From a candidate division FCPU426 bacterium (GTDB lineage Bacteria; Oederibacteriota; JAAXVQ01; JAUVAV01), in NCBI GenBank assembly GCA_040756875.1, contig JBFLYH010000001.1:1052778-1116777 (forward strand): DNA of 64,000 bases, read 5' to 3'. The notes beneath the pieces were generated by a model that did not search any database, had not been told where the DNA came from, and was given only the letters and a program-made list of their open reading frames with translations. Positions 8,501 to 50,727 of the stretch are shown here, piece after piece. Every line of letters starts with the position of its first letter. Within the stretch, counting starts at the first letter, position 1. The position numbers and the translations under genes were made by a program.

Positions 8501-11500
8501 CAGCAGGCGCCCGGCGCGCTGCCGGTCAAAACGGACCAGGTCCTCGAAGCCCCGCAGGTTGATCCAGAGCAAGGCGAAAAGCTCCAGGTGTGCGGCCGGA
8601 GTCTGCGGCATCAGACGGGACAACTGCAATTTGCCCAACTCCCGCGCGAGGGAAACGTCCAGCCAGTCCTGGTTTTGGAACACGCGCCAATCCAGGTATA
8701 TTCTCGGCTTGGCGCCGGTCTGAAGCTCCTTCACCCCGGCCGAGGCGAAATCGCCGGACGTGATGATCAGTTCCACATTCAATTCCTCGGGGCTGAAGCG
8801 TCCGGTCTGCAGCAGGCGGCCGCGCGCCTGGTCCAGGGCGGATTGGAACGCAGTCAGGACGGCCGGACTGAGTTGCACGAACTCGTGGCTGACATCCGCC
8901 AGCTCCGATTCGCGCCAAGACGCTGCCTGGGCCAGGCGGCCGGCTGCCTCGCGGGGCAAGGACAGGCTGGACAGGCGGTTCCAGGATCCGGCCGCGATCT
9001 GCAGCGTGCGGCCTTCGAGGCTCGGCAATGCCCAGCCGCCCTGCCCTTTAAAAATCTTCATATCGTCCTGAGCGGCGATCTGGCCCAGCCCCAGCACCAT
9101 GCCCATGGCCAGCATGCTTTCCGAAGCATTGTGGCCGGACAGCCACTGGGCCACGGCCGCCCCGGCCAAGACCAGCAAGGCCAGGGTATCAAGGTTTCCA
9201 CCCAGGTAATGAAGAACCCACGCCCAGGCCGCCTGTGCGCGCACGGCCAGGCGCTGGTTCCGCGTGATCGCCGGCTTGCCGGTCCAGGCCAGAACGCGCT
9301 CCGCCTCCTGCCACAGTTCTTCCTCGGCGCCGGTGACCGGCACTCTCGCGATGGCTGCCGCGAACCGTTCTTCGTCTTTAACGACCAGGGACTGGCCGAG
9401 GTACACGGGGCTAAACCCGTCGTCCCTGGCCGCCACATATTCGTATTGTTCCTGCATCTCCTCCGGCGCCGCGGATTCAAAGGCAGCGCGATCGGCCTGG
9501 TCCGGGAAGTATACCTGCAATACCGCCGCCTCGCCGGCGCCTGCCTTGAATTTGACCCAGGCCGTGGGTTCGGACGGAACGCTCGGCCCAAATCCGTATT
9601 CCCGCATCAGCACTTCGTGCAGAATCAGGTTTTTCATGGCCGGGTGTGTTTGCCTGAGGCGCGGGAATTGGTTGAAGAACAGCGTCAACAGGGGCCGCAG
9701 CAGTCCCATGCCCCGTAAATCCCGGGCGATCAGCACGCCCCGCAGGCCGCTGCCCGCATAGCCGTCGGCGATCGGCATCCGGTAGGCCAGCAGCTCGGCG
9801 AATTCTTTGGCCGGGGTCTGGGGCCGGATCAGGCCCACGCCGATTTCCGTCACCAGGGACCTCTGCTGCCGCAGTTCCACGGTCCGGCCGCGCGACGTGA
9901 GGCGCACGCGGTCGCCGGCCAGCTGGATCTGGTCCGCCGCCGTCGCCGGCACGCCGCGTTCGGCCTCCAGCTGCGCCAGGGTCAGCGGCCGGCCGGCTTC
10001 GTCGCGCTGGAAGGACACGCGGTAAGCCACTTCGGCGTTGAACAGGCGGCTGGTGACGGGATTCAACCCCAGATGGCCGTCGGTATCGTTGAGCGCGCCC
10101 GGCGGAGAAGTGACCGGCTCCAGGGCGAAGAAACCCGTTTCCTTGTCCCACACCACCACGAACGGCATGTTTGCGGACTGGGCCACCTCGATCATCAGGC
10201 CTTCGGTCTCGTTGTAAGCGCGCGACACCACCTGGCCTTCTGGCTCGGCCTGCAGGTCGAGCAGCACACCGTGGCGGCTGCGGTCCGAAGCCTGGAAAGC
10301 GCGCAGGTCCATGGACGAACGGTCCACGGTCCGGGGCGGCCCGGTCGGAAGCATGTCCCGGGTGGGCAGCAGGCGTTCGGCCGGAACCTGCAGGAACCAT
10401 TTCCCCTCCCCGCGTTTGAACCAGGGATGGCTGCCCGTGGTGAACACCGTGGCATTGTCCACCTGGATGCGGTTGAACAGCTCCGGACCGGACAGGCGGT
10501 AGGTCAGGGCCAGGCGGCCGGGGCCGAAACGCTTCAGGATCTCCGGATGGCTGCGGTTGTCGAAACGGACGCGGACTGAAAGGCCCTTGGCATTGACGCT
10601 GATTTTGTCCACGTGGAACGGCTGGCGCCGCACCAGGCCGTGATAGACGGTGCCCTGCGCGTTTTTCTTGGTCAGCCCGGCGTCCGTCAGCGCCTTGTCG
10701 CCCAGGTCGATGAGGCGGCCGTTGAACATGAATTGATTGCCGGCCACCTGGTCGATGTAGGGATACATGACTTCGATGCCGCCCGAGGACGGCACTTTGT
10801 CGAAATGCAGGATTTCCCGGCCGGCGACGGTGAAGGAAGCGATTTTGGCCGCGAACCCGGGCACGATCTCGAAGGAACTGTCGTGCGCCAGATCGCGGAA
10901 GATCAGGGTGTCATAGCCGTCGCGCGAACCCCGCTGGACGTCATAGCGCCCGGCCCAGGGCGAGAACCGCTCGGCCACCCGGGCGTAGGCGCGGGCCAGC
11001 CAGGCCGGCAGCCAGGGCGCGTTGACCTGTAAAACAAGGACGCGGGCGGCCAGGGCCTGTTGCCGCAGCGCGTCAGCAGGACTGGCTTCGGCCTGCAGCA
11101 GCAGGCTGCTCACGATCCGCAGGGCCCCGGCTTCGGCGCCCCGGGGGATTTGTTCGCGCAGGAAGGCGTCGAAAAAGCCCCGGCTGAGCCCGCCCATCTT
11201 CCGGGCGGCCGCGGGATCGGCCAGCAGCGCCTGCAGCAAGCCGCGGTCGAACATCCGCGCTCCGCCGGCCGCTTCGAGCCCCTGCCAGGCTTCGCGGTTG
11301 TATTCCCAGTGCGAACCGAAATACAGCACGGGCTTGCCCTGGGCCGCGGGCTCCAGTAGGTTGCGGTCGTTGCCCATCACCACCACGTCGGCTGCTGCGT
11401 AGAAGGCGTTCATCTCGCCGACGCTCTCCACGAGCAGGATATTCTTGCCGGACAGGTCCGGGTACGCTTCGCCGTCCGCGCGCCGGACCTCGCCCGCCTG

Positions 11501-14500
11501 CCCCTGCAGAACATCCAGGGGCGTCTGCGGATAATCGATGTCGTCGCGGCGCAAGCCGACCACGACCACCGGCCGCTCCGCGATGGGCAGGCCGGCGTAT
11601 AAAGCCCGGTACTCCGCCATGAAGGCATCGAGTTCGTGCCGCGACGGAGAGCCGAGCACGATCAGCGGCCGGCCGGACAGGTTGAGGTCCAGCCGCAGCC
11701 TGGCGGCCGCGGCTTCGGGCACCTGCTCCGGCACGCCGTATTTCAGGGGCGCGTAATTCACGGCCACGCAGCTGACGTCGTTTTTCTCAAAAGGCGCGGC
11801 TGCGAATTGGTTGTCGCGGAAAGTCAGGCCTACGGCCGAGCGGTTTTCGACTGATTGCGGTTCCCGGGCCCACTGCGGGAATTCCCTGGCCGCCAGGCCG
11901 GCCATGCCGGGTTCGCGTTCCTCGTTGACGCCGATCACGACGTCTTCGGGTTGCAGACTCAGGGCCCGCACCAGGCCCTGTAGGGCGCGGGCCGAGGCGG
12001 TTTCGTACAAATTCAACTTCAATTTCTTGCCCAGGGTCCGCAGTAAGGCCGGAACCAGGCCGGCCGCTGTGGAGGCAGAGGCAAACGCGGCATTGCGGCC
12101 GATCATCCCCTGCCGCCGGGCGTTCCGGAACCAGCCAAGGATCACGGAGGCGGCGTCGTATTGATCCGGGTCAGCCAGCAGCAGGTTGAGCCAGCGGATT
12201 TTTTGGGCCGGTTCCGCGGTTTGGTCGCTCAACAAGCCGGTGATCAGATCCTGCCGGCCGTCAACCGCCAGGAATTCCAGGCCCGCGCGCGTTATTTTTT
12301 CGAGTTCGCCCGCCAGGGTGGGGTCTTTGGGCAGCAGGGGCATGACGCGCAATAATCGGGCCGCTTGTTCCGGTTTGATTCCCCGGAATTTGACCACCGC
12401 CTGCTGCAGGGATGAACGGGCCATCAGCAGGGTCCGGAAATCCAGGTTCGCGAGGCCCCGCTCCCAGGCTTCGGCCAGCCGGTCCAGTACCTGGCGCGGC
12501 TCCCCGGCTTGGAAAGCGCTGGCAATGGCTGCGTTGTAGTCGACCGGAATTTCCGCCGCGCCGGTCCGGAATCTGCCCCATTCCGCAAACAAAGCGCGCG
12601 CTTCTTCGGCCAGCCAGGCCAGGCCGGGCAGGCGCTGCCACCACGCGATCAAGCCGGCCGAAGTCCGGTCAGCCAGGTAATGATGAAGTTCGTGCGCCAC
12701 CACCTGCAGGCGCCGGGATTCAGGCAGGGAGCGGAGATTGGCGTGGAACGCCAGCGCGCGGTCCGAGGGCGAATAATATGCCGCCGGGCCGAAAAGGAGC
12801 AACAGACGCCAGGGCGATATTTTCAGGGACTCGATCCGCAATAATCTCAGGCTTTCGGGAATCGCCTCGGTTTCTCCATTCACCCACGGCAGCCAGTCCG
12901 CAGCCAGGGGAACCTTGAACCGCACATCCAGGAGGCTGCGCATATCGCGGCGCAGGTCCTGCATGTCGTACGCCCGGTCAGCCGGTTTGAACAAGCCGAG
13001 CACCAGGGGCAGGCGCCAGGCAAAATGCGGCAGCAGCGCCACCGCCAGGCCAGTGCCCCACCCTAAACCAGTTTGCAGGCCCGAGGCCCACAGCAGCAGG
13101 TCCACCACCACTCCGGCCGCGATTCCCGCCAGGCCGAGCACGCCCAGAGGCTGCCGTGGAGCTTCGCCCTCCGGCGCCCGGGCCTTTCGCTCCACAATGA
13201 ACATTTTGGGCATCGAAGCCATGGGCGTCGCGGATTCCAGGTTGGAAGCCGGATAGTCCGCGGGCAGGTCCGCTTCAACCCAGTTCAAATCAGGATCAGC
13301 GGCAGCCAGCTGCTCCAGCCGCCGGCGCGTATTGGCGATGAAATCTTGTTCCTCGGTGTAGGCGTGCGTAATCACGAGCAGGCCGCCGGGTTTGACCAGG
13401 CCCAGGGCCGGCGCGATCAGGTCGTTGTTATCGATGTTGTTCAGCGTGACCAGTTCCTGGGCTTGGGGGTGCAGGCCCACGGCGGCCAAATCCTGCGGGG
13501 AGTGGATGTCCGCGTACTGCACGCGCAGTTCCTCGGGCGCCGCGCGGTCCATGATACCCTGCTCCACACTGACGCCCGTGGAAACGCCGAAGCCCAGCTG
13601 CTGCACCAACTGGCGCAGGTTGCGGCCGAACTCGGCGCGCGCGCCGGCCCCCAGATCCGCAAACGCCAGGCTGGCCCGGCCGGTAAAACGTTTCTGCAGG
13701 AAGGCGCCGAAAGACCGGCTCATTTCCTGAAGATCGGAGGCCTGGGCCTGCCTGAGGCGGCGTTCGGCCAGCAGGTTTCTAAGGTAGTCTGACTGCGTGT
13801 AGCCGAGGCCGAGCCGCACCTGGTTGGTTCCCGGCAGCACCTGAAGCGCATGCATGGCCAGGCCGCCGATGATCTCAGGGCGGGTCAGTTCCACGCCGCC
13901 GATGCTGACCGTCGCGCTTGAAGCCAGGAAGGCTTCGATCGCCTGCATGGTGGGCTGGTTCCGGCCGTTCCGGACGGCCTGGATCAATTCCCGCCTGGAC
14001 AGGTCCGCGGGCTCGAGCGCCATCTGGTTGTTGTTCCGGCGCACAGGCACCACCAGGCCGGACATAATGCTGCGGTAGGCTTCAAACAGGGTCAGCCGCT
14101 CGGCTTGCCGGATTTGCTGCAGCCGTTCGCGCTCGGATTTGGAGACTTTGGGTTTCTTGTCCTTGCCCTTTTTAGCCGAAGGTTTGGCAGCCTGAGGTTG
14201 CACGCCGCGGGTTACAATGTCGGCCACCTCGATCGTGTCCACGCCGTTTTGCAGGGCCCAAGCCAGCAGGGCATCAGCAGCATCCTGCCGGGCGCCAATC
14301 AGGTTTTCGACGAAATCCACGATTTTCAGCCCGACCACATGCCTGGCCAGGACCTTGTTCTCGTAACTCCACACCATGCGGCCGTCCCGGATCGCCTGGT
14401 AGGATTCGATGCGGTGGCTGGCAAAGCCAAAAGGTGCAATGGCCGCGCGCACGAATTCAGGGTCCTCGCTCACGGACCCGCGGATGCTGCCGTTGCGGAT

Positions 14501-17500
14501 GTCCTCCAAGGGTGACTCGAGGAAAAGCTTCAGGAAGGCATCGGCGCTGGCCTTGCGGGTTCGGTCCAGTTCTTCGGCATAGGCAGCCGGGTCCTGCCCC
14601 ACCACCCGCACGCCATAGCGGCCGTCCGCGAACACAGGCACCAGCCGGCCGGCCCGGATGTGGCGGATGGTTTCGAAAAGATTGGGCTGCGCCGGGGTGT
14701 CGACCACCCGGCCCTGGGCATCCACCAGGTCGATGTACACCACGCCGGTCTCGGGCAGCGGTTCGACCAGAGATTGCTCCCGCTCCTTGCGTGACCGCTG
14801 GATGAGGGCGAAGATCGGCTCAGCCGGCCTGCCCACAATGCCGACCTGCTTGACGCCGTCCCGTTCCCGATAGATCAGGCGGCCTTCGCGCACGTACTGG
14901 TCCACGTCCTCCACAGTGGGCCAGACTTCGTCCGGGATCTGCTTTTGCGCCTGGCTTCTTTCCATATATATCTGCCCGGGCTTCAGGCTCAGGGCATAAT
15001 CGTCGGCTGCCCGGTTCCGGGCGGCCGTGACTTCGGCCATGTATTCCGGGGTGCCCATGTCCACCACGTACATTTGCAGGGCGTTGGTTTTGGGGTTATG
15101 GCGCCAGCCCAGTTTGCCCTGCATGATGCCTTCCCGGACTTCTTCCACATTGGGCCGGTTGAAGCCTTCGAACACATCCAGGCCGGTGTCGCTTTCCAGG
15201 TCGACGTACAGGGTTTCTCCGGGCAGTTGATCTTCGAACTCATCCTGGATTTTCTGCCGCCCGGCTTCCAGCACCCGGAAATAATCCGCAGCGCGGATGC
15301 CGGTCAGGCGCAGCCAAACCCCGCCATCCGGATAAACGGTATAGCGCAGCCAGCCCTCGCGCAGTCCGCGCTCCGCCTCCTGGGTGTTGGGATGACCGAG
15401 ATAAGCGTGGGCAGGGGCGGCTTCCAATTCTTCGTCAGACAGCATCAGGCCCATGGCCCGTTCGTTTTCGTCGAACAGGCGCTGGAACTGCTCAGCTGCT
15501 CCGGCGCGCGCCTGGCGTATGTTTTCCAGGTAGTCCTCGGCTGATCCGGCCACCAGCGCGGGCAGGTCCCTGCCCTCCTGGGTTTCGATGGTCAGACGGC
15601 CCGAAGCCACGGCCAGGTAGGCTTCTTCCCGGTTCAGGCGCAGCGCGCCTTCCCGGGCGCCAACCAGGGGCAGCATATAATCGCCGGTAGCCTGGGTCTG
15701 CTGCCAGAGGCGTTCAGCCCATTCCACCCGGGCTTCGTCCAATTGATTCAAGTACTCCTCGAGGCTTATTTTCCTCGGGGTTACGACTACCTGGCCGTCC
15801 GCTTCCCGCCAGGTCAGGCGGCCTTGGCGGATGTCTTCGTACGCTTCGAGCACATTGGGCCGGGAATCATCCTCGCCCGCGCCGGCCAGTTCCACGAACA
15901 CCTGGCCGTCCGCCAGGGCCCGGCGGAACATGCGGGCTTCGTATTGCTGGTTCTTCTGCCGCTTCTCCTCGGCGGTCATCTGGCCGCCCCGGGATTTGTT
16001 GCTCTTGGACATGAGGAAGGGCGCCTGCAGCAGGGGGATCAGGTCCGTGGTGCCTGCGGGCTGCACGAAACGCACCGGGCTTTGCACGGTGATTTGGGGC
16101 CAGGGCAGGCGGGCCAGTTCAGCCCCCAGGGCGCGGGCTTCCTCGGCGAGCCAGCTCAACCCGGGCAATTGCCGCCACCCGGCGCGCCGGCCGGCAGGCG
16201 CCTGTGCAGCCAGATAATGATCCAGCTCGTGCGCCACCACCTGCAGGCGCCGGGCTTCGGGCAGAGAGAGCAGATTGGCGTGAAGGGCCAGCACATCGGC
16301 GCCGGGCGAGTAGAACGCCGCCGGGCCGAAAAACAGCAACAGGCGCCAGGGCGACAGGCGCAAGGTCTCGATGCGGAGGTTCCGAAGCTCGGGCGGGACG
16401 TTCTCGTTGGCGCCCCGGATCCAGGGCAGCCAGGCCGCAGGCAGGGGCACTTTCAGGCGCACGCCCTGGAGCTTGCGCAAGTCTTCGCGTAAATCTTGCA
16501 AACCATAGGCCCGGTCAGCTGGTTTGAACAAGCCGAGCACGAGCGGCAGGCGCCAGGCAAAGTACGGAACCAGCAGTGTGGTCAGCCCGGTTCCCCAACC
16601 CAGGCCGCCCTGCAGCCCGGCGGCCCACAGGACCAGGTCAACCGCCAGGCCGGCGAACACCGCGGCCAGGCCCAGGACAGGCATGGGTTGTTTGGCTCCT
16701 CTTCCCGCTGCCGGAGTCTTTGCCGTCTGCGGCCGGGAGATGATGTGCACTTCGTTTTCTTCGTCGTCCGGGTTGATGGTATCCAGGACCTCCAGGCCGT
16801 TGGCTTCAGCCTCGGCATAGATCAAGCCGGCCGCGTCACCCCGGTTCCACACGATGAGGCGCCCGCGGTCAGGAACCAGGGATTCGCCGGTGCCCAAAGT
16901 CAGCTGGCGGATGAACTCGCCGTTGTCTCCGTCCGCATAGCCGGCGAGGCGCTTGGGCCGCAACTGGCCGTTGTTGACCAGCACCTGCCGCACCCATTGC
17001 GCGATTTCCTCCAGCGTGCCGGACACTCCAGCCAGGAACTCCCTGGCGATCTGGGCGTAAAAGCCTTTTTCTTCCTCGGACATGCGCTTCACGAACGGCG
17101 CATTGGAAAAGATCAGCGCAAATTGCTCGCCCGCAAAGGCCCATTGGCCGTCCCGGGACATTATATTGTCGTGCACCTTGGCAATCAGCGGGAACCCCGC
17201 GGCTTTGGCCAGGTAGCGGGAATTGGCCACTTCGAAGGGATTGATGCCCACGGCATACACCGGCAATCCGGCACCCAGCCAGGCGATCCAGGCGTCAATG
17301 CCCGACCCCGGGCCCACCACCAGGATTTTATCGTCCTGGGCGAGTTTTTCGTTTTTGCCGGCGATATAGATGCTTCTCAAGTACATATAATCCGCGAGGA
17401 AATTCTGGCCGAGGCCGGTTTCGCCTTCGCCCAGGGCCGGCGAATAAACCGTGGGAAAAACCGGGAACAGCACGCGTTTGACCTCGGGCCGGGCGTCATA

Positions 17501-20500
17501 GAAACGGTCCAAAATCCCGCCCTGCGTGCGAAGGACATCCGCAAAATCGAATTCCATGAACCAGGGCATGAACAGGCCCATTTCCTCCACGAACTGCGCG
17601 AAGACGAATGGTTTGTGCCCCAGGTCCGGCACTTTGGTGACAATCTCCGCCAGCCCCCTGCTTTCCAAATACTGGCGGATGGCCTGCTGGTCAGCCTGCC
17701 ACTGTCCGGCCTGGTCCAGCCAGTGCTGTTTGAATTCCCGGTCATCCCAAGCCGGAAGCGCAAAATTGAAAGCCGAGAAGTCGAAGTAATTGAGCGGGTG
17801 CGTATCCCGGTTCGGAAATTCAGCCAGCAGTTGTCCGGACACTACCGGGAAAACGGCCAGCAGCTGCCCCTGGCGGTTGTAAAGCAGCTCGAACTCCCGG
17901 GTGGGCCCCAGTTCATTGTGCAGCACGTCAATGCCCTGCGGCGGTTCGGACGGTTTGGCCCGGACCGGAGCCAGGATGCGCTGCACGGTCAGCCGGGTGG
18001 TTTCATCGGTCCGGGTTTCCAGCACCCGGGCGCTTTCCAGTTCCAGCACCTGCAGCAGTTCGTGCGCCGGCGTGCCTTCGGTCCGGGCCAGCAAGGCCCC
18101 GACATCCACCCGGTCCGAATCATCCGCGGGCCGGGCTTCCGCTTCCGGCGCGCGCGCCTGTTCTGCCGCGACATCGACCTTTTCAGTCTGGCATAGGAGA
18201 ACCATGGCGTTCCCGCGGGTACCGACCTGCCGGAAGCCCAGGCCGTTGTAGAGATTGACCGCCGCTTCCTGGATTTCCGAGGTCACCAGGGAGATGTTCC
18301 GGGTTTTTTCCTGGGGATAGGCGGCAAAGCCCTGGGCCTTGAAATCCGCCATGGCCTGCAGCATCAGTTTCCGGCCCAGCCCCAGCCGGCGATAGGCCTC
18401 GTCGACCACCAGGGCTTTGATGTACAGGGTGGGTGTGTCGATGTTGGCCAAGACGCTTGCAGGCCGTTCATAGGCAATGAGCATGGCCACCGGTTCGCCG
18501 GCGGCGTTTTCGATGACATAGCTGCGGTTCCAGCGGTTGAACCAGCGCACGCCGTTGACGACTTCGGCATCGAGGTCTTGCGGATGCATGACCGGCAGAT
18601 GAGGATCGCGGTTGTGCAGGTCGAGCAAGGCCTGCTGTTTGCTGCGGGCATACGCCCGGTCCAGCGGGCGCAACTCCTGGACCGAGTTTTCGCCGGGCAG
18701 TTGCGCCGCCTTCCGCCCCGCCTGCTCGGCAGCCAGGGCCTGCCATTCGCCTGCCAGCCAGCTCAACCCGGGCACTTGCCGCCACCAGGCGCGCCGGCCA
18801 GCAGGCGCCTGCGCGACCAGATAATGGTCCACTTCATGCGCCACCACCCGCAGGCGCCGGGCTTCGGGCAGGGAGAGCAGATTCGCGTGGAAGGCCAGCG
18901 CATTGGCACCGGGCGAATAGAACGCCGCCGGGCCGAAAAACAGCAGGAGGCGCCAGGGCGAAATTTTCAGGGAATGGATCCGCAATGATTGCAGGTCTGC
19001 GGGAACTTCTTCGGTTTGGCCGCTCACCCAGGGTAGCCAGCGTCCGGGCAGGGGCACTTTCAGGCGCACGCCTTGCAGTTTGCGCAGGTCTTCGCGCAGG
19101 TCCTGCAGGCCATAGGCCCGGTCAGCTGATTTGAACAAGCCGAGTACGAGCGGCAGGCGCCAGGCGAAATATGGAACCAGCAGAGTGGTCAGCCCGGTTC
19201 CCCAGCCCAGGCCGCCCTGCAGCCCGGCGGCCCACAGGACCAGGTCAACCGCCAGTCCGGCGAACATTGCCACCGCGCCCAGGGCAAACAGCGCCTGCTG
19301 TGCGACCCGTCCGGGTATCTCGTACCTGAGAATCCGGCCGCTGGGCGTTTCCTGGAACCCGGATTTGACAAGGAACTGTTTGGTTTCCTTCCATTCCTCG
19401 GTTCCCTCGGCTCCGGGCCCCTGCTGGAAAGAGATTCTTTCGATGTTGGTTTCCTGATACAAAAGGCCGGGAATGGTCATGGCCTTCATGACCAGCAGCA
19501 GGACCTGGCGCCCGTAACCCTGCCGCAAAAAGGGCGGATAAATCCGGATGCCGATTATTCCGGTTCGCGACCGTTCATTGTCCCGCGCGATGAGCGCATG
19601 TCCGATGACTTCGCCCTGCTGGTTCTGAATGACGACGATGTATTCCTCGGGTTTGGTATCCTGGTTGCGGAAAGCGGTCACCACCACCGCGCCGGCCTGG
19701 AACCGGCGGCCGTGGTATAAGTCCAGGCGTTCCTCGAAGGGCATGGGCCTGCCGCCCTCCTCCAGGATGGCGTATCCGTGGCGGGCGTGGGCGGCGCGCA
19801 AATCGCGGAGCAAATCCCGCACCAACTGATCGTCACGGTAGTTAAAGACCTTGGTTTCGACCTCCAGGCCTTGCGCCTGCTGCCAGGTAGCTTCGGCTGT
19901 GCTCAGGACAGCCGCGGGCCTCTGCCGGGCAAACGCGTTGGCGAGGCCTTCGGCCTGCTGCGGCAGGTCCAGGGCGCGGCCGCGCAGGTTGAAATCCGTG
20001 CTGAAACGGAACCGGGTCTCGCGGGTCCCGGTGCCACGGTCGCGGATCTCCAGTTTAACGCCGGCGAGAGCGACATCCAGCCCGGCGGGTTGGGAGACCA
20101 CTTCGTATCGGCCGTCCGCGCGCCGGATCTTGATTTCACCGGCTATATACTGCCGCCGCAGCGGCCCGAAGGAATTATAGAGGTCCACGCGGGGATCATC
20201 CAGGCGGTTCCAGGCCTGCTGGTCCGGTTCCTGCATTTCCATGGTCCCGGCCTGGAACAATTCCAAAGCAATGCCGAGCATGGCCGGATTGCGGACACTG
20301 TCAAAGACCAGGGGCATGGGATTGTCCGGATAGAGTTCCCGGGCCAGGCCCTGCAGCCAGCGGCTGACAGCCAATCCCCAGCCCTGCCCTTCCACGGGTT
20401 CAGTGGCTTCTATATTTAATAGCCGCAGGTGGTCCCCGGCCAGTTCAAAACCCACGGCCAGGCTGCCTTCCGGCAACTGGGTGGAGTACAGGAATTCATA

Positions 20501-23500
20501 ATGGCCTTCGACGAGAATCCGCTCCCGGAAATGCAGGGCAAGCCGGCTGCCCGGCTGCCGCGGGTTGTCCACGGTCACGGTCCTGGGCACGTCCTCGCCG
20601 GTCTGCCACTCCGGTTCGCCGTATTGGACGCGCTGGACCGGCGCGCCTTCGGTAGGGCCAGCGGTTTCCAGGCGCGCAACCAGTGCCCGGTCCACCGCGC
20701 CCTCCTGCAGCAGGCTGTCGAGCGAAACACGGCCGTCGTAGAATGCCAATCGGCGGTAAGGCGTGCCCTGTTCATGCGCGTCCAGAAAGTTTTTCAGGGC
20801 CAGGCCGGCGGCGCGGAACCCGGCCCGGTCTCGGCCCTGGTCATCGCGTGCTACGATAACACCGGGCTGGCCGGTTACGTCTTTTGCCGGTCCCAGGAAA
20901 ATCGGAAAGCGCAGGCCCGGCAGGCCGGCGTCGGTCAGGAAATCATCGATCACCGAATCGCCCAGGAGCAGGAGCGCGCCCGCGGCCGGAAGATTTGCAG
21001 CCCAGGTCCGCACGTGGTCACGCTTGCGAGCCAGGCTGAATTTGGCGTAATCAGTCGAAGCGCCGGCCATGAATTCCGGGAACTGGTCCGCCAAACCCCA
21101 TTTTCCGAGCAGGGCCTGCGCGCCGGCCAGCACGTCCCTGCCCTCGACGATTGTGTCGTGTGAGGAAAGGTTCACTTCGTAGTCATAAGGCTGGAAAAAG
21201 GCCGTGGTCCGGCCTTTAACCACAGCCTGGAAGCGGTCTTTAATTTCCAAAAAATCGTTGCTGGCTTCGATGGCCGCCAGTTCGTTTTCCAGGTCCAAGC
21301 CCTGCTGCCGGCCAAGCAGCCGCAGATAGGACAATGCCAGGGCTTTGCCCAGGGAGATCTGTGCGGCCGGTTTGACCACCGGGCCTTGCCGGCGTTCGAA
21401 GCGCGTGGTTCCTTGTGCGTCAAAGGTGAAGGTCTCGCGGCCGGTGTTGGCTTGGATTTCCAGGTTGGCCAGGGCCGCCAGATCGCCGGTTTTGCCCAAT
21501 TCGGTCCGGAGTTGCCGGATAATGCGGAGCTCGAGAGAATCCTGGTCCCGAATCTCGGTCCGTTCCACAAAATCCCGCGGATCGTTGGAACGGAATATTT
21601 TACTGGTCTGCGCCGCGCGGCCCGGACTGCCGCTGATTAAAAGCACGGGAATCCCGGCCTTGAGGGCGCGCACGATTTGATCCAAAGCCTGGCGCGTCAG
21701 CGGCGCGACGGGGGTGTCGGTCAGGGTCAGGTCCACGTCCGCGACCAGGCCGCGCAGGCGCACGGGCGCGTTGGGGTCCAGACCGGCCGGAGTCTGCGCC
21801 AGCACGCGGTCCTGCCAAGCCTGATCCGTGGTCATTCCCATGGCGCCGACAACCGGCCCCTGAGCCGTTGCCAGACCCGGGGCAGCCAGCCGCTCCCGGA
21901 TCAGGTTCGCGAAAAACGTCTTTGTCTCTTCCCCGCTCTCCCGGCCGGTAAGGCGCTCGCGGCCGCGCTGCACCGCCTCCTCCAGGGCCGACAGCGGCAA
22001 TCCGAGTTTTCCGGCTAGTTGGGCGGATTCACTGCGCGCGGCTTCCACGAACCCCGCGCTCATTTCCGGCGATAGGCCCGGCAGCCTGCCAAACACCGCG
22101 TGCTCGTATAAATCCGCCAGGTAGCCGCCGATTTGATCCAGGCGGCTGGCCAGGGTCCGGGCCGCTAATTCTTCGGCCGTGAAAACCCTGGCCGACCCCT
22201 CGGGGAAATCGCTCTGGCCGCGGGGCAGCTGGACCGTCAGGTTCAGGGGCACTTCGGCATATCCGTCGTAGTCGATTCCCACCAGCCGGCGCGGGCCTTC
22301 GCCCACCGGCGTTTGCAGGAAAAACGGCATGGCCGCGCTGGCGTTTTCGTCAATGAGGCCGCGGATTCCAGCCTCCGCCTCGGGCCCGAGGTTGCCCACC
22401 GCACTGGCTGGAGCGGAAATGCGGCCGGCGTCGTCCCGCAGCCAGATGCTCACCCGCTCATCGGGCTCAACGCGCAGCGTATAGCGCCAGTTGCCGCCCC
22501 CAATATAATAATGAACCAGGGTGCCGACCGGCAGGAGGCGCAGGTTGATCCACTGGGCCCTCTGCGAACGCTTAGGGTCCAGAACCGGCGGCGCGCTTTG
22601 GTCTTCAACGCGGACCGCAGGTTTGCGGCTGGTTCCGAACTGCGACATGGCCAGGGGCGCGAAACGGTTCACGGCGAAATGAACCAGGAAAGCGGAGGCC
22701 AGAACCACGGGCAGCGAGCTGGAGACCGCCAGCAAGCCGAGATTAAGGACCGCGATAAGGGCCGCCAGCGCGAGATTGAGCGCCGGCGCGCGGCGGCCGG
22801 CTGAATCGGCGATGAAGTGCAGGCCCAGGAACGCGGGCCAGGCCAACAGATAGGAAGCCCTGGCAGCCAGCGCGATGTCGCCCGTGGCCCAGTAGAGCGG
22901 CACGCCCAAAAGCAATCCCGCGCCGGCCAACACCAGGCTGTTCTCCAGCCAGAACGCCACCCAGCGGTCGTAGCGGCTGCTGCGCGCCTGGCGCGTGGCT
23001 TCGTCCGGGTTGCCCCGGTTGACATACCATTCTTTGACGCGCGGCATGATGCCGCCGGCAGCGAAGCGGCCCTGCATGGCCTTTTCAGCGGCCTGCACGT
23101 CCGCTTCGGCGGGCATTTCGAAATATTTGCCGGCAAACCGGGTCGGCTGTACTTTAGTTTCAGGTTCGCCCTGCACCACGGTTTCCGGCCGCGGCTGCAG
23201 GGACACCGGCGTATCCAGTTGCAGGTAAGGCACGAACCGGGTGGGATCGAAGATCAGCCACTCGCCGTCCACCTTGACCAGCAGCACGCCGTGCGCTTCG
23301 TTTTCGGTCAACAGCGAATTGCCATCCACATTCGAAAGGCCCATGGCAAAAACCGCGTCCAGGCCCAAGTAGCGCAAATAAATAAACGCGTTCATGGCCA
23401 GGGCTTCGCAATCGCACAGGAAACGGCGGCCCTGCTCCAGTTCCCCGTTCACGAACGAGCCCCAGGTCCCCTGGTTGAGCGCGTAAATCTGCCGTTCGTA

Positions 23501-26500
23501 GTAGGCGAAGTAATCCACGATCGCCCGCATGGCCGCCTGCGCTTTCCACTGTTCGTTGGACAGCGGCTGGTTGCGGTCATTGCGGAAACCGGTCCAGCGT
23601 TTCACATCATCCAGTTGGCCGCGGATCACGTCCGGAATGTCCGCGAATTCGCGCTCCAGCCTCGGCGTGACCGGGAAGCTGCCTTGGAGGTCGCCGTTTT
23701 CCGACATTTTTTCGATTTCATAATCAAGCGAGTATTCGAGATTGTCCGCCTGTCGGCTTACAATCTTGCCGTCCGAACCAATGCTGACCTTCTCGTCCGG
23801 CCCGGCGACATAGTGTATACGGCCGTTCACAGTGACGGGCGCATTGATGCGAAGTCCGCTTTCCAGGTTGGGGAACAGCACGTCCACCTGCACGCGTTCG
23901 CCGGTGGGCTGCCCGCGGCTGACCAGGTTCAGGCTGCCCTCTTTGGAAAAAGCGCCGGCATCATTGATCGCGTTGAAAAAACCCGTGAAATAAATTTCCG
24001 AAGGCGCTCCGGAGCGCCGGCCGGCATTGCCTGACAGGCGGGCGCGCACTAGTTCGGTCACGGTCAGCGTGCCCTCGGATGGAACGGCGGTTTTTTCGGC
24101 CTCGACCACGGAAGGCAGGCGGCCGTCCAGCGCCCGCTGTTCCGGGTCCAGCGGCTTGTAATAATACCCGCGCTGCCGGACCAGGTTGATCTTCTGGATG
24201 CGGGCTTCCGTGGGAGCCACCGGCTCCGAATAGTAGATATTAGGCCTGGCTTCGCGTGACACGCCGGCCAGGGCGGCCAAAGGCTGGGAAAGTGCCGTGG
24301 TCAGGGACAGGGCCAGCAGGAACGCGGTCGCCAGCCATCCGGTCGACAGGCTCAGGCGCGGCCAGCGCCAGTGAAACGCCATCACCCTAGGCACGGCTTG
24401 ATTGACGATGAAGTGCGACAGGACCCCAGCGCCCAGCAGCAGGGGCAGCGACAGGCCTGACAGGCACAACCCTATATTCAGGAGGGACAACAAGCCGGCC
24501 AGCGCCAGGTTGAGCGGCGGCGCGCGACGGCCCTGCGAATCAGCGATGAAGTGCCCTCCCAAAAACGCCGGCCAGGCAGCCAGCATGGTCGCACGCAGAG
24601 CCAGGGAGATGTCTCCGGTTGCAGCCACGACCGGCAAACCAACCAGGAATCCGGCAAACGCCAGGGTCAGACTGTTCTCCAGCCAGAACGCCACCCAGCG
24701 GTCGTAGCGGCTGCTGCGCGCCTGGCGCGTGGCTTCGTCCGGGTTGCCCCGGTTGACGTACCATTCCTTCACGCGCGGCATGATGCCGCCCTGTCCGGAG
24801 TAGGGTTCCTTGACCACGACCGGCGCCTGGGCGAACGCGGCGTTGAATTTGGCCTGGTCCTTCACCACCAATGTCTCGCCCAGATACAGCGGTTCGAACT
24901 CCGGCGTCTTGCGGTCCACGATGGCGTATTGTTCCCGGATGGTGAGCGGGGCGTTACCGACCAGGTCGCGGGCCGCGGGATCCACGAAAAACAATTGGGC
25001 CCGGACCTTTTGCGTGCGGTCGGCTTCCGGAAGCATCCGGATCCAGGCATTGGGTCTGAGCGGCTTTTGCGGCCCGAAGCCGAATTCGCGGATGAGCATG
25101 CTCTGCAGCATGGGATTTTCCAGCTTCGGATGGGTTTGACGCACCTCGGGATACAGGTGGAAAAAGAGGTTGAGTAAGGGGCGCAAGAGATTCATGTCGC
25201 GCAAGCCGGTCAGTTCCTCAATCAGCAAACCCCGCAACCCCAGAAGGCCTCCCACCTCCGGTTCGCGCAGGGCATAGACGAAAATATCGGGCACGCCGGT
25301 CCACTCGTCCCATTTGCCGCCCATGCCGTAGTAATTGAGCATATATCCCTGTCTGGCCCCCTGCCGCAGGGGCTGGTACTCAAAAACCAGACGCTCGGCT
25401 CGGCTGTGGATGGCCACTTCCAGGCGGTCAATGACTACTGCCCGCCCGGCAATCAGGCCCGGCTGGACAGTCATTTCGGGCACGACAAACATATTGGGCG
25501 CCAGGGCGTCCTCGTACAAGCGCTGGGTGAACGCCGGCAGAATCAATCCGCTGATGGAGCGGCCTTCGGAAGCAAAATCTTCCTCGTCGATCTGGACGCC
25601 TTCCAGGTGCTTGCCGCTGTGCAAGCGCTCCACCTGGATCCCGAATTGCTCCTCCCATTGCCGTAACTGCTCCGGCGCCGGCAGTTCGTCCGCCGTCACG
25701 CCGATGCGGATCGGTTCCTCCGGATCCACGGTGAGCAATTCTCCCCGGCCCCAGGCGCCGATCAAATACAATCCCGGGAATCCGGGGCCGTAGAACTCCA
25801 GCAGTTCCCTGATCACCTTCAGAAAACCGCTTTGAGCCGCCTGCAAACGGTCCATCACACGTTCCGGAATGGGCGTATAGCGGTCAGCCTCGGGCAAACC
25901 GGCCGCCACCGCGGCCTGCGGGGTGAGGGGCACCAATTCCCCCTGCTGTTTTTGGAACACGCGGTAGAAATTATTCTGGCCGGCAATGGTGTTGCTGACT
26001 TCAATATAGAATCCGCCTTCGCGCAGATTGGCCGCGATTTGCTGCCGCGCCCGCTCCCAAACCTCGGGCGAAAAATGGATCGCCACGTTGGCGGCGCGGA
26101 TCACGTCCACCGGCGTGGGCAGCTTGAAGTCCATGACATCGCCCTGGAACAGGCGCAAGCCCGCCTGGAGATATTTGGGATTCTGCCAGGGATTCCAAAT
26201 GCCTTCCGCCCGGTCCAGGGCATACGCCTGCCCCTTGCCCGGCTGAGCCCGGCTGTAGGTTTCCAGGGTTTTAAAGCGCCGGCGGAATTCAGCAGCCAGG
26301 CTTTTCCAACGGGCAATAAAGCTGGCGCCCACGGTGCGGCCGCTGCGGGTCATCAAACTGATGATATTGCCCTGGCTGTCGAATATGGCCTGGACTTCCT
26401 CGCGGTCGCCGCGAACCACGGCCAGGGGCAGGTTTTTGTCCATGCCCAGGAAATCCACCTGCGGGGCGGCCGTGCTTTCCCGGTCCAGCTGCCGCCGCAC

Positions 26501-29500
26501 ATTGCCGGCGGTGAGCCACAAGGCATCAGGGTCCGCGCTCACGCCCACTTCCAGAAACCGCAACCCGGCGCCGGGCCGTGCGCGGCCCGCGGCGCGGAGC
26601 GCCGAAGCGACCAAGGCGTCCGACTTGTCCAGCCGGTAGGGCGCCGTGTTCATGAATTCGAACAAATTGCCCTTGAACGCAAACGCCCGGGCTTCGGCCG
26701 GGCTGTAGAGCCTGGGTTTGGCCCAGGCTAGAAGGTCGAACTCGAATTTCTGGCGGAGGTGGTTCAGGGTCAGGCTGCCGTTGAGAACGCCTTCGGCAAA
26801 GGCCCCGGCCGCGGCCTCGGGCAAGGCGGGCAGCATGGGAAAAATGTCGTGGTGCAGGTCCCTGATTTGCGCCGTCAGGCGCATGATTTCTTCCGCGGCC
26901 GCTTCCTCGAATTCCGCGAGCGCGCCCAGGAGCAGCGCGCGTTCCTCGGGGGACAGGATCGCTTCCGCGGGGATATTCTCCCGCTCCCGGGCTGCGGGCC
27001 GCGTGGCAGCCAGCCACCGGCTCAGGGCTTCCTGCTGGTCATTGCCCAGCAGGCGCCCGACGAATCCCACTGCCTCGGAGGTCAGGTTGCCCAGCTGCGC
27101 GACCCGTTCCCGCTTGCCCGCGCCGCGCAGGAAGCGGTGATCCACAGCCGGATCGCCGAGGGATTCGCCCAGCTCGTGCGCCAGCGCGGCGTCGAACACC
27201 CCGTCCTGGCTGAACAGTCCCTGGTCGAGCAGCACGGTCCCGGCCGCGGCCATGCCGCGGAAAACGGCATCCGGCGGGCCGCGCCGGACCTCCACCCGGG
27301 TCATGATGTAAAAACCGCCGAACGTTTGGTCCAGGTCCACCGGCTGGCCGGTCGTCTGCATCAGCGTACGGGCCTGCGCCAGCATCGCGGCCAGCACTTT
27401 TTTATCCTGGCCGAACCAACGGGCGCGGGAGGCTGAAATTCCATCCAGTTTTTGCAGCGCCTGTTCGATCCGCGCCATCTCCCGCGCGCTTGGTTCGCGC
27501 AACGTCACGATGAATTCCAGTTCCTGGCTGCGGTCGACCTGGCCCTGGGCGTCGATGGGATGGGCCTTGACGCGGATTTGCGGCAGGGACAGGACTTTGA
27601 GCACGGTTTCGTCCGTGCTGGCAATGCCCTGCAGCAGGTCCGCTTCGGCCTGGGTGAAGGTGGCGGCCCGGGGCGAGAGCACGGTGGCTTCGGTGATTTC
27701 GAATTTGCCCATGGCCCCGCCGGTCTCGTCCGGGTCCAGGAGCGAGCGGCCGTGCGCGCGGAGCTTGTACCGTTGGGCCGAGGTGCTGAGGACCTCGCCG
27801 TCCGCGGGCGTGTTGAAGTAATCGGTTACGTCCACGTCGCCCCAGCCCATGGCCTGGAACACGCGGGTCGAGGCGGCGATCAGGCTGCGGATCATCCCGT
27901 TATATTCCTCCGCCGGGCGCTCATGCCCTTCCAACCAGTAGAAGTTGAAGTCATAAGAGACGAGCGAGCTTAAATCCACGAAGAAATCGTACACCGTTTC
28001 GTGCAGCTGCGCGGCCGTGTATTCGCCGGCCTGGATGGCCTGTGCGGCCTTGGCCAGTTCGGCGTACTGCTGACCCACCGTGGAGTACAGCGAAGGCGCG
28101 GTGGCGCGCAGGCGGGTGTAAAACCCGAACATCCCCTCCAGGGCCTCCCGGACTGCTTTCATTTCCGCCTGGACCGTTTCGACCGGCGCCGCGCGCTCCT
28201 GCGCGCCCGGCGCATGCTGGGCCAGGCTCTTGTACATCCGCGGCGTTCGGTCGCGCGACTCCACGTATTGCAGGCAGCGGGACATGATCCGTTTGTTGGC
28301 GGCGCTCATCAAAGCGGCGTGCAGCAGGATCTGGTTGGAGACCGTTTGGTAGAGTTCCAGGTCCGGCACCATGCCGCCGGACATGAAAGTAATATGATGG
28401 TAGCCGGCCATGCCGAAGAGGTATTGCCGCACCGAATCTTCCAGGCGCTGCAGGCGCACCAGCAGGTCATTGGCCTGGCGGGGGTTCATGCCTTTGGGCG
28501 CTTTGGGGACGCTTTGCAGTATTTTCTGGAATTCGTTGACCAAGGGCAGGTAATCGGTCTGCCGCAAGGGGACGGCCTGGGGCTTGCGTTTCATCAGCTT
28601 GGCCACGCGCTGGATCTGCAGGCGCATGTCCTTCAGCAGGTTCAGCTGCTGATTGTACCTTCCCACGCGTTCCTGGTCCCGCAGGGCCTGCGTGAGCGGA
28701 TGCTCGTTCAGGCGCCGGGTTTCGCCCCCGATCACCGCGCGCAAATCGTCCGCGAACTGCCGCGCGGCTTCGGCCTCCCGGGCTTCGGCTTCGCGCTTGC
28801 GCGCCTGTTCCTCGGCTTGGGCCGAACGGCCGGCCTCGGGCTTTTGCGCTTCGGGTTCCTTGCCGGCCTGTTCCTCCGCGGGCTTGGCCTGGCGGGCCTC
28901 GCGCCAGGAAGCCTGCAGCTGGATCAGGTCCGAGGCGGAGATGAACCACTGGGTTTCATCCGGCGCGACGACGGAGTGGACGAATGTCAGGGGCAGGTTC
29001 CAGACTGCCAGGCGCAGCTCGCCGCTGACCAGGGCCTGCCGCACATCCTCCGGGGTGAGCGGCATGGCCGAGGACTGCATGCGGCGCAGGAAGGTTTTGG
29101 ATTTAACCTGCAAGGTCAGCGTGCGTTTGCCGCTGAACGTGAAGGGTTCGGCCGCGGTCACCGCGATCTCCGCGTACATCTGCCAGGCTTGAGGCGCCTG
29201 CACTTCCCCGGCCTGGGACAGTTCGCGGAGCAAAACCGCGTCGTGGTTTGCAGGTAGGGCCTGTTCTCGGGCCGACTCCTGCGGCGACAGGCCCAGGGCT
29301 TCCAAGGCTTCGGCCTGTTCGGGCGTGGAGGCTGCCAGGTTCATCTGTGCTCGCACGCCATAAAACCGGGCAATCCGCTGCGCCTCGGCTAAATATTCGA
29401 GAATGCCGTCCTCGGTCGCCCGGGAATCAAAGGTGTGTTCGACGATCCAGACGCCCCGCTTCCACGCTTCCAGCCACTCGGTCAGCCCGTCCTGGGCGTC

Positions 29501-32608: not shown

Positions 32609-32625
32609 ATAATGGAATTGCATTC

Positions 32626-35821: not shown

Positions 35822-35830
35822 ATAACACCC

Positions 35831-36066
35831 ACCACGAAGGCACGAAGCTGACACGAAGGAACAGTAAAAACGTTCTTGGGTTAAAAGATTTTACCCCGGC
35901 CCTCTTCGTGCCTTCGCTCTTCCTTCGTGCCCTTCGTGGTCCGCTTTTAAAGTCCACCACGAAGGCACGAAGTTGACACGAAGGAATGCATAGAAGGTTC
36001 AGGGTTAAGGATTTAAACCCCGATATTCTTCGTGTGCTTCGTGGTCAGCTTCATGCCCTTCGTGGT
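35831..36066. repeat. Two tandem CACGAAG-family palindromic elements (35831-35940, 35956-36066)
   Basis: ACCACGAAGGCACGAAG...CTTCGTGCCCTTCGTGGT inverted arms with a central GGGTT...ACCC hairpin. Confidence 0.85.
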
Positions 36067-36449
36067 CAGTCTTTCCCCAGGTAAACCACTGCCTCGATTT
36101 CCACTTTGGCGCCGATGGGAAGGCCCGCCACCTGGACCGTGGCCCGCGCCGGGCGATGGCTGCCCATGAACTCCTGGTACACGCGGTTGAATTCGGGAAA
36201 ATCCGCCAGGTCGGTCAGGTAGACCGTCGCCTTGGCCACCTGCCCCAAGGTCGCGCCCGCGGCCGAGATCACGGCCTGCAGGTTGTGCAGCACGCGCCGG
36301 GTCTGGGCCTCAATGCCGCCCTCGACCCGCTTGTTGGTCTCGGGGTCCAGGGGCACCTGGCCTGAGCAGAACAGCCAGTCCCCGGTCCGTACAGCCTGGG
36401 CGTAAGGTCCCACGGGCTTGGGTGCATGCGGGCTTTCGATGTAGTCCAT
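36066..36449 (-). CDS. ridA: RidA/YjgF family enamine deaminase
   Basis: GPYAQA, SGQVP, PARATVQV, VEIEA; GGAGGT RBS. Confidence 0.92.
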   Translation of the reverse strand: MDYIESPHAPKPVGPYAQAVRTGDWLFCSGQVPLDPETNKRVEGGIEAQTRRVLHNLQAVISAAGATLGQVAKATVYLTDLADFPEFNRVYQEFMGSHRPARATVQVAGLPIGAKVEIEAVVYLGKD

Positions 36450-40403: not shown

Positions 40404-40515
40404 ATCACGAAGCACACGAATGAATAATGAATAATGAATAAGGTTCAGGGTTGAAGTCTTTAACCCAAGCCCATCCTTCTTCGTGCCTTCGCTTTTTCTT
40501 CGTGCCCTTCGTGGT
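40404..40515. repeat. CACGAAG-family palindromic element
   Basis: Same arms and central hairpin as 35831-35940; contains (ATGAATA)x3. Confidence 0.8.
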
Positions 40516-40522
40516 CAATCTT

Positions 40523-50194: not shown

Positions 50195-50727
50195 TTGATC
50201 CGCCACCGCCATTCCTGGGGATTGTCAGGAACGTGCTGGACCCGGACGTTCTTCGCACCAGCGTATTCCATGATGCTGCAAATGTTGCCGCTGATCACCT
50301 CGCGCATGGCCGGAGGAAGATCCGGAAAGCGCTTGACGGCAAACAGGATTTCCTGGTTTCCGGTTTTTTCGGCCGTGGCCTGGCCGGTGTCGAAGTAAGT
50401 GCCCCAAACCTTGGCCGCCAGGCTGACGACGATCGGGATGGAGGGGATCCGCAGGAAGAACTTGTACACGCCGGAGTAGCTCTTGTCCGCCATGGCCCGG
50501 CCCAGCCGCTGCATCCGGTCCGGCGCGCCGGGAAACAGGGACTCGGCGGCTTTTTCATACAGGCGGGTCTGCTGGTCCACGGGCGACCAAGTGGAATAAA
50601 GCGTGGCTTGGTACATGCTCCGCAACTCCGGCGGCAGCCCGTCGAGAAACGCCCCCTCCACGGCCTGCCCCTGTTCCGCGAAAAGTTTGCGCAGCGCCAC
50701 AATGTCCGTGCCCTTGATGCTTCCCAC
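50185..50727 (-). CDS. Hypothetical protein, DUF2378/TIGR02265-like, paralog 2
   Basis: IKGTDIVALRK...WSP...LGRAMA...WGTYFDTG; similar to the adjacent gene. Confidence 0.7.
   Translation of the reverse strand: MGSIKGTDIVALRKLFAEQGQAVEGAFLDGLPPELRSMYQATLYSTWSPVDQQTRLYEKAAESLFPGAPDRMQRLGRAMADKSYSGVYKFFLRIPSIPIVVSLAAKVWGTYFDTGQATAEKTGNQEILFAVKRFPDLPPAMREVISGNICSIMEYAGAKNVRVQHVPDNPQEWRWRIKWE

Follow-up and report, generated by a model that had tools for sequence, protein, structure and literature searches.

Paralogous membrane modules within one giant bacterial gene as probable substrates for homologous recombination

Giant genes encoding multi-enzyme, multi-transmembrane proteins are known from Omnitrophota, and in the available text of West-Roberts et al. 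2023 (bioRxiv 10.1101/2023.11.21.568195) these proteins constitute the first (multi-enzyme) category of 'Archaeovorins'. According to the same text a divergent SecA DEAD helicase domain is present in 'most' full-length giants, and the conclusions name the origin and domain uptake of bacterial giant genes as an open question. A 2026 preprint (bioRxiv 10.64898/2026.06.07.730766), in those of its parts that were available, refers to such giants as class 1 'multi-enzyme metabolic clusters', catalogues proteins of at least 10,000 amino acids (aa), and describes the repeats in long Omnitrophota genes as mostly not recent. Here we describe a giant gene from a candidate division FCPU426 bacterium and the repeated membrane modules, or linkers, that separate its enzyme domains. 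The gene lies on a stretch of 64,000 nucleotides (nt), hereafter the window (assembly GCA_040756875.1, contig JBFLYH010000001.1, positions 1,052,778 to 1,116,777), and consists of a single minus-strand open reading frame (ORF) at 2510..32623 that spans 10,037 codons without an internal stop.

The window protein resembles the Omnitrophota giants, as far as the available parts of the literature describe them, in being encoded by one very long ORF (10,037 aa), in its many transmembrane (TM) segments, of which structure models give two in module R4 and four in module R3, and in its string of unrelated enzyme domains (methyltransferase, GNAT, HAD, HEAT and epimerase, with NUDIX and glycosyltransferase mentioned in the literature). 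Its N-terminal domain furthermore has distant relatives (23-35% identity) in loci labelled Omnitrophota, Planctomycetia and Elusimicrobia. It differs from these giants in that its closest relatives are found in metagenome-assembled genomes (MAGs) labelled Ca. Firestonebacteria, Ca. Goldiibacteriota or 'uncultured bacterium', and in that it belongs to a family with shared N- and C-terminal domains and 2 to 11 fetched loci per MAG. A further difference from the giants as described there is that no SecA-DEAD, C39 or S8 Pfam match was obtained; for SecA DEAD this refers to 22 segments of the protein searched at E<=0.1 and three large chunks searched at E<=0.01. Type II secretion genes, which are often encoded near Omnitrophota giants according to the same available text, were not among the 23 flanking ORFs scanned (Pfam, E<=1e-5; small ORFs left out).

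We consider it probable, at roughly 0.7, that the repeats are paralogous copies of membrane modules within one giant gene and serve as substrates for homologous recombination. For one gene family this would provide a concrete answer to the question of domain uptake, with conserved membrane modules between enzyme domains acting as recombination substrates and with one enzyme block whose gain or loss between two related genomes runs exactly from one linker to the next. The architecture as a whole is modular and recombination-prone, and a dedicated or high-rate diversifying system was not demonstrated. It is well known that intragenic and paralogous repeats of bacteria undergo concerted evolution as well as deletion via homologous recombination. 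The window shares with this process a tract in which paralogs resemble each other more closely than orthologs do, mosaic sites, and a segment between direct repeats that is lost or gained in frame. It differs in that the repeats are functional membrane modules separating unrelated enzyme domains of one ORF, and therefore each event alters the enzyme content of a single protein. The word 'recombination' does not occur in the available text of either of the two sources on Omnitrophota giants, and no paper on linker-mediated recombination in giant genes surfaced among the entries listed by full-text literature searching.

Repeat families and comparison with a positional ortholog

Protein self-comparison (E<=1e-4) revealed four internal repeat families, namely R1 (aa 831-1053 and 1637-1873), R2 (aa 2462-2606 and 7626-7767), R3 (aa 2612-2749 and 3190-3327) and R4 (aa 4438-4653, 5307-5522 and 6486-6681). 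Every copy is located inside the one ORF, which also encloses the whole interval to which an earlier note on this DNA had drawn attention (16120-24790), and the spacings of 578, 869 and 1179 codons are in frame throughout. All features of the giant gene given below are on the minus strand. The two copies of R3, each with an N-terminal amphipathic part followed by four TM helices, are encoded at 24374..24790 (copy 1, aa 2612-2750) and 22643..23056 (copy 2, aa 3190-3327), and their DNA is 77.3% identical across 362 nt (22699-23056 versus 24433-24790). The earlier note had reported that 22940-23023 matches 24674-24757; indeed all 84 bases are identical, and the exact run extends to 86 nt (22938..23023 in copy 2 and 24672..24757 in copy 1), inside the 41-codon N part of the module. 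The longest exact direct repeats in ten codon-shuffled windows measured 15-18 nt. Among 92 conserved degenerate positions of R3, 61 carry identical codons where 42.2 would be expected from the codon usage of the gene, and 26 of the identical codons form one run (permutation p = 1e-4).

The history of this tract can be followed in a related gene, L001 (contig CAZVUO010000002.1), which we regard as the positional ortholog in a related species because its N-terminal domain is 78% identical to that of the window protein and the 10 kb upstream of it are collinear with the genes upstream of the window giant gene. Across the first 3,831 codons of the L001 ORF, which the comparison covers, window aa 5-674 correspond to L001 aa 3-672 (74%), aa 1906-2752 to aa 1039-1874 (58%), aa 3174-3575 to aa 1720-2116 (68%) and aa 3606-3779 to aa 3658-3831 (66%). 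The second and third of these blocks overlap in L001 at one R3 module (R3a; L001a in the identity values below), which has a hybrid arrangement with respect to the two window copies. Upstream of R3a, 24 of 40 residues match the flank of copy 1 and 3 of 40 that of copy 2, whereas downstream 40 of 60 residues match the flank of copy 2 and 3 of 60 that of copy 1; the membrane part of R3a is of the copy 2 type (82 of 99 residues identical). The window and L001 therefore differ at this site by exactly one R3-to-R3 unit of 578 codons, consisting of an R3 membrane part and the transglutaminase-like cargo between the R3 copies. The junction in L001 falls somewhere in R3 codons 1-41, where the window copies are identical in protein. 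One linker-to-linker block is thus present in the window and missing from the syntenic ortholog, with its junction in the identical tract.

In codons 1-41 the DNA of the two window copies is 0.967 identical (differences at 4 of 123 nt) and their identities to L001a are 0.862 and 0.870, whereas in codons 42-140 copies 1 and 2 are 0.616 identical and copy 2 is 0.754 identical to L001a. Because the order of identities reverses between the two parts, the R3 copies are older than the species split, and their N parts were homogenised afterwards. Gene conversion is recognised by such a paralog-over-ortholog tract bordered by sequence with the reverse order and by a clustering of identical synonymous sites beyond chance, and R3 shows both; a short tract of the module has thus become uniform after the lineages of the window and its nearest relative separated. 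A further relative, P0001, has a single R3, the membrane part of which is somewhat nearer to copy 2 and L001a (63-66% identity) than to copy 1 (55%).

An explanation by selection only would combine purifying selection on the protein with a nucleotide-level constraint on the R3 N part (RNA structure, a translation signal or codon bias) and would involve no recombination. It draws on the protein of the N part being 100% conserved between the copies and 80-85% identical to L001a and P0001, on the high codon identity between orthologs in this part that is given below, and on the predicted RNA fold of the tract (z = -2.0, with 10 of 200 shuffles folding equally well). This fold is only mildly stable, Rfam searches matched no family in window 12000-26000 and no tRNA was found in the window, and we rejected an RNA element as the explanation of the identical tract. 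Selection only is improbable, since the copies are more similar to each other than to the ortholog in the N part while the adjacent TM part dates them before speciation, since the identical codons exceed the number predicted from codon usage and are clustered, and since it leaves the L001 junction unexplained.

The three copies of R4, each comprising a TM hairpin and an HExxH domain, are encoded at 18704..19303 (copy 1, aa 4441-4640), 16106..16696 (copy 2, aa 5310-5506) and 12563..13159 (copy 3, aa 6489-6687). Copies 1 and 2 share 83.0% of their DNA across 570 nt (18720-19286 versus 16113-16679), with identities per 60-nt window between 0.50 and 0.97, and copy 3 (12594-13117) is 72-74% identical to both. 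The first two had been called nearly identical over long stretches in the earlier note, under the name 'repeat D'; the repeat is real, but its longest exact run is just 50 nt (16599-16648 = 19206-19255), with 20-28 nt for the remaining five runs that reach 20 nt. Between copies 1 and 2 the number of identical codons is 107 where 68.5 would be expected, and these are not clustered (p = 0.21), while copy 3 has 69 against 53.0 and 69 against 55.9 in comparison to the other two copies. At informative sites, 106 support a grouping of copies 1 and 2, 45 of copies 1 and 3, and 38 of copies 2 and 3. Sites of the second kind are clustered at module nt 262-325, where they make up 25 of 38 informative sites, a value matched in none of 1000 permutations. 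R4 thus carries a mosaic patch, located in copy 2 at 16357..16420 (copy 1 counterpart 18964-19027), in which copies 1 and 3 agree against copy 2; this patch may be either a conversion tract or the result of local fast change in copy 2.

In a tree of R4 modules the two copies of P0001 form a clade (support 99/99), as do the three window copies (73/8), and a topology that forces window copy 2 to group with P0001 copy b was rejected (approximately unbiased test, p = 4e-46) despite their collinear downstream cargo (44% identity). These within-protein clades would fit conversion and equally a separate duplication in each lineage, and either way it is the linker, not the cargo, that is copied.

The cargo segments between the copies show no similarity to each other in the self-comparison, in agreement with the earlier note; besides the four repeat families, its sole matches are weak tandem repeats at aa 5560-6113. 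Between the R3 copies (23057..24373, aa 2751-3189) there is a weak match to a transglutaminase core (E 0.013, 16.2 bits, under the cut-off of 23 bits), in a segment that is not found in L001. R4 copies 1 and 2 enclose a GNAT acetyltransferase (16697..18703; PF00583, E 1.3e-11) and a segment without Pfam match that follows it and has relatives in P0007 and L005. Weak tandem repeats and a C-terminal segment are located between R4 copies 2 and 3 (13160..16105), and this cargo is collinear with P0001 aa 4856-5856 and P0011 aa 758-1485. The repeats in it form a run of weak units of about 75-100 aa at window 13724-16105 (aa 5507-6300), with 24-33% identity among each other and 44% identity to P0001 and P0011, and the block matches no family.

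Alternatively, linkers and cargo could have been duplicated together long ago, with the cargo diverged beyond recognition and the linkers as the slowest-evolving parts. The identical codons of R4 copy 3, which are near the expectation from codon usage, would agree with this, as would the mostly not recent repeats that the 2026 preprint, in its available parts, finds in long Omnitrophota genes. We nevertheless regard old segmental duplications alone as improbable: the cargo blocks (GNAT, repeats, transglutaminase-like) represent separate folds or families and are not diverged copies of each other, R4 copies 1 and 2 share more identical codons than expected, and the R3 N part is younger than speciation.

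Linkers and cargo across the gene family

R4 is very rare. A profile built from its three window copies matched only 13 proteins among 1.84 billion representatives, several of which are giants or fragments of giants, and the neighbours of R4 differ among these proteins. P0001 (6,243 aa), the only match to residues 2400-7000 of a 10,000-aa query (the giant from aa 38) in a word-index search among proteins of 5,500-17,500 aa, has one R3 and two R4 copies, and the segment between the latter is unrelated to the window cargo. Its precomputed Pfam list includes NAD-dependent epimerase/dehydratase families, and its HAD block precedes the R4 copies, in contrast to the position near the C-terminus in the window protein. 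In P0007, R4 is followed by the segment that follows the GNAT domain in the window, in P0006 by an aldose epimerase, and in P0013 an R4 remnant is followed by a rhomboid domain (PF01694, aa 199-343, E 6.7e-24). The same linker thus adjoins different cargo across the family. The earlier note had named as an observation that would speak against its cassette proposal that relatives have the same domain order and the linkers occur nowhere else; the orders differ, and the linkers are found elsewhere with other cargo. A word-index search with R4 among proteins of 381-2,000 aa gave one match, the R4-bearing fragment P0002 (55% identity), and none of the 23 pattern matches from a scan of genome contigs with R4 alignment A1 was confirmed.

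Family members share an N-terminal domain of about 500 aa (alignment A2, mean column identity 59%) and a C-terminal domain, and these frame a variable middle. A scan with the N-terminal domain, using one genome per species, identified 99 relatives, and 78 loci were retained from these. Of the 78, 58 come from nine MAGs with the label Ca. Firestonebacteria, Ca. Goldiibacteriota or "uncultured bacterium", with 2 to 11 loci each (for L001-L058 and L070, CAYVTN has 11, JAAXVQ 9, CBDUZI 8 and CAVQBK 8), and loci with these labels are 33-78% identical in the N-terminal domain. The other 20 loci, at 23-35% identity, are labelled Omnitrophota, Planctomycetia or Elusimicrobia or are unassigned. All relatives found are metagenome-assembled, and of the family ORFs within the fetched stretches the shortest span a few hundred codons and the longest more than 3,800. 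The N-terminal domain had no Pfam family and no match among PDB sequences, and a protein atlas returned for it 'hypothetical protein' clusters alone, mostly from Omnitrophota. It marks a large paralogous family, defined by this domain outside Pfam and PDB together with the shared C-terminal domain.

R3 or R4 profiles match four of the 78 loci (L001, L015, L020 and L036) at E<=1e-5. Dispersed in-frame DNA repeats were also detected in further giant ORFs of the family, and in at least four loci these are again membrane or HExxH-like modules with 80-88% identity: L004 (88% across 661 nt, spacing 1,034 codons), L045 (85% across 560 nt, 575 codons), L027 (80% across 512 nt, 628 codons) and L063, an Omnitrophota record (82%, 2,122 codons, with an HExxH motif). 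A fifth repeat, in L014, is 100% identical across 507 nt (18312-18818 and 20940-21446, spacing 876 codons). The translation does not reveal its type of module, and a very recent duplication or conversion could account for the repeat, as could an error of assembly. None of these five repeat modules had a meaningful Pfam match.

The L014 repeat also bears on the question whether the window itself could be chimeric, that is, whether the contig traverses a short exact repeat of two paralogous giant genes or strains twice and thereby produces a linker-cargo-linker arrangement. Long reads exceed an exact repeat of 86 nt in length, whereas assemblers use words of comparable size, and metagenome assembly and the 2 to 11 fetched loci per related MAG would provide the setting for such an error. 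We find it very improbable, however, given that one open frame is kept for 10,037 codons, that 4 of 123 nt distinguish the N parts of the copies and identity beyond them is only 62%, that two R3 copies are likewise present in L001, a gene from an independent assembly, and that the segment between the copies begins and ends in R3, which means that an alternative path must be a closed loop.

Recombination between linkers, the reading that we prefer, probably proceeds as follows. Purifying selection keeps the module copies similar, and through this similarity the copies become substrates for ordinary homologous recombination. The process would be unequal recombination of the RecA type or gene conversion, acting within the gene and probably also among the several paralogs per genome in related MAGs. 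It would be one of several routes by which enzyme blocks are gained or lost.

Several observations weigh against this reading. There are at least three large differences in architecture between the window and L001, and one alone is bounded by linkers: window aa 675-1905 are replaced by L001 aa 673-1038, and L001 aa 2117-3657 are inserted between window aa 3575 and 3606, in both cases with edges that carry no linker repeat. For the R3 block, the comparison with the outgroup P0001 is compatible with gain in the window as well as with loss in L001. No relative of the transglutaminase-like cargo, and hence no donor, was detected among the family members compared or, by word-index search, among proteins of 770-2,195 aa. 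The similarity of the R4 copies can be explained by lineage-specific duplication without conversion, and the clade of the window copies is weakly supported (73/8). Orthologs share 29 of 35 conserved codons in the N part of R3, compared to a baseline of 0.52-0.63 in four other gene segments, and nucleotide-level constraint may add to the identity of the copies there. The proposal of the earlier note that the linkers act as anchors for recombination or gene conversion is borne out by the conversion-like R3 tract, the R4 mosaic patch and the 578-codon block, but not by the two other indels.

Programmed diversification, in which a dedicated system would swap cargo cassettes through the linkers at high frequency, is highly improbable despite the strong differences in architecture between syntenic orthologs and among paralogs and the recurrence of dispersed linker repeats in the family, since two of the at least three indels are not bounded by linkers, the R4 copies are just 72-83% identical in DNA, and, unlike in site-specific cassette systems such as integrons, shufflons and diversity-generating retroelements, no recombinase, integrase, invertase or reverse transcriptase family was detected among the 23 flanking ORFs. 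From the diversifying system envisaged in the earlier note we therefore retain the modular and recombination-prone gene, but neither programmed machinery nor near-identity of the R4 copies.

Predicted nature of the modules

R4 has a mean column identity of 80% over the three window copies. A structure model based on ten aligned sequences (predicted local distance difference test, pLDDT, 75, and about 90 at residues 50-170) gives two long helices (residues 9-29 and 39-60; TM) followed by a small alpha/beta domain that carries the HExxH motif on a helix at residues 151-169. The motif and a downstream Glu are kept in all 13 aligned R4 modules, and H160, E161 and H164 are nearly invariant in alignment A3. 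The best PDB fold matches (Foldseek; entries 4qhi, 4qhf, 4jiu and 4jix, then 3dti) were the minigluzincins selecase, proabylysin and projannalysin, followed by IrrE/PprI, Spartan and ArdC. R4 resembles minigluzincins and zincins of the M78/IrrE type in having the HExxH helix after a small beta-sheet and a conserved downstream Glu, and it differs from them in its fusion to a TM hairpin inside a giant protein and in the weakness of the similarity. We predict that R4 combines a hairpin of two helices with a small HExxH domain of the zincin type, a putative peptidase, downstream of it. It counts against this part of our interpretation that the fold matches are weak (E 0.017-0.25, none at E<=0.001; probability 0.57-0.99; target-normalised TM-score 0.40-0.47) and that Peptidase_M78 reaches 20.8 bits in Pfam, under the cut-off of 22; SprT-like reaches 16.3 bits, and a PDB profile search with R4 gave no relevant match.

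For R3 the model (pLDDT 69) shows a short N-terminal helix and four long helices, and we predict a membrane bundle of four helices together with an amphipathic part that is conserved at the N-terminus. Polar residues kept in all six aligned modules are E43-N44, F81xxxH85, R94-A95-P96, N110 and H131xxxN135. Intramembrane proteases of the CPBP/Rce1 type carry a Glu on the first core TM helix, FxxxH on the second and HxxxN on the fourth. The order of the polar motifs in R3 is reminiscent of this core; the first motif of R3 lacks the second Glu and the Arg. An assignment of R3 as a CPBP/Rce1 protease was rejected, with none of the six members having a Pfam match (E<=10) and the best PDB fold match being unrelated (E 3.5), and the motifs provide a lead at the motif level only.

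The number of predicted helices is even in both R3 and R4, and the cargo on both sides of each module would therefore face the same side of the membrane. This side is most likely the cytoplasm, because methyltransferases and GNATs need S-adenosylmethionine and acetyl-CoA. The even-helix modules would in this way hold one enzyme domain after another (methyltransferase-like, GNAT, HAD, aldose-epimerase-like and others) on one membrane side, tethered as beads on a string.

With its rhomboid domain, an intramembrane protease domain, P0013 adds a third type of protease-like membrane module to those of the family, and the protease-like look of the linkers raises the possibility that the giants are processed polyproteins. 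Speculatively, the HExxH linkers might cut the precursor into separate membrane-anchored enzymes. A self-processing membrane polyprotein, in which R4, R3 and the P0013 rhomboid would both anchor and excise the enzymes and the conserved linker DNA would provide homology arms for cassette exchange between the paralogs of a genome, seems to us unlikely as a complete account; if true, it would amount to a natural plug-and-play way of assembling arrays of membrane-tethered enzymes.

Family members tend to terminate in -Ala-Ala, as do the window protein (at 2513-2518) and eight of the nine fetched proteins whose end lies in the shared C-terminal region or tail. In the loci, such ends occur in 9 of 21 closed ORFs of the N-terminal family, while among other ORFs with a length of 200 aa or more they occur in 16 of 599. 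Compared with tails of the ssrA type, this ending looks like a tag for degradation or processing at the C-terminus.

Gene architecture, flanking genes and minor features

The giant ORF (2510..32623) encodes a signal-anchor, a conserved N-terminal domain, variable enzyme cargo split by membrane modules, and a conserved C-terminal domain, and its product is a multi-pass membrane, multi-enzyme protein. The family-defining N-terminal domain (aa 1-500) is encoded at 31124..32623 and the C-terminal domain (aa 9666-10037, ending in -AA) at 2513..3628. A simple hydropathy scan found the hydrophobic N-terminal anchor at aa 34-52 and further hydrophobic clusters at aa 2648-2785, 3222-3324, 4440-4465, 5316-5334, 6493-6544, 7807-7825 and 8873-9017. 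Above the Pfam cut-offs we found two GNAT domains (about aa 4318-4383 and 4690-4800), an aldose 1-epimerase (about aa 7286-7513), a small-domain methyltransferase (MTS/Methyltransf_31, about aa 8558-8693) and a HAD domain (about aa 9077-9166); below them were CheR/Methyltransf_25 (about aa 2130-2224), the transglutaminase core (about aa 3058-3127) and HEAT. The giant protein had no Pfam match to NUDIX or glycosyltransferases, and no relevant Pfam match was obtained for its first approximately 1,900 residues, including the N-terminal domain, or for the C-terminal domain.

Two repeat families remain to be placed. R1 is a repeated soluble module with a HELGE motif (copy 1, aa 831-1056, 29456..30133; copy 2, aa 1637-1875, 26999..27715). 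It had no relevant Pfam match and may be another metal-binding module. Its motif HELGE...DH..LRG.GK is kept in both copies, in P0001 and in L001, and P0004 has a divergent form. R2 copy 1 (aa 2462-2607, 24803..25240) is located immediately upstream of R3 copy 1, and R2 copy 2 (aa 7626-7768) is encoded at 9320..9748.

The G+C content of the giant gene (0.62-0.67) is similar to that of the remainder of the window. The 23 flanking ORFs with their Pfam matches represent an ordinary chromosomal set, with DUF1538, RecG, SpoT, DUF374, MurJ, HolA, LptE, LeuRS, AcrB with OEP and others, and identify the flanks as the chromosome of a diderm bacterium. Three intergenic regions (35829-36074, 40440-40523 and 59996-60078) have short repeats in common (42-117 nt, 77-93% identity, one inverted) that resemble repetitive extragenic palindromic (REP) elements. 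A tandem repeat with a period of 67 nt and 98-99% identity is located at the end of the window (63807-64000). Finally, two adjoining ORFs of 180 aa at 50185-51294 are diverged tandem paralogs (66% DNA identity over 345 nt); one of them has a weak DUF2378 match, and an ORF with a PilZ domain adjoins the pair.

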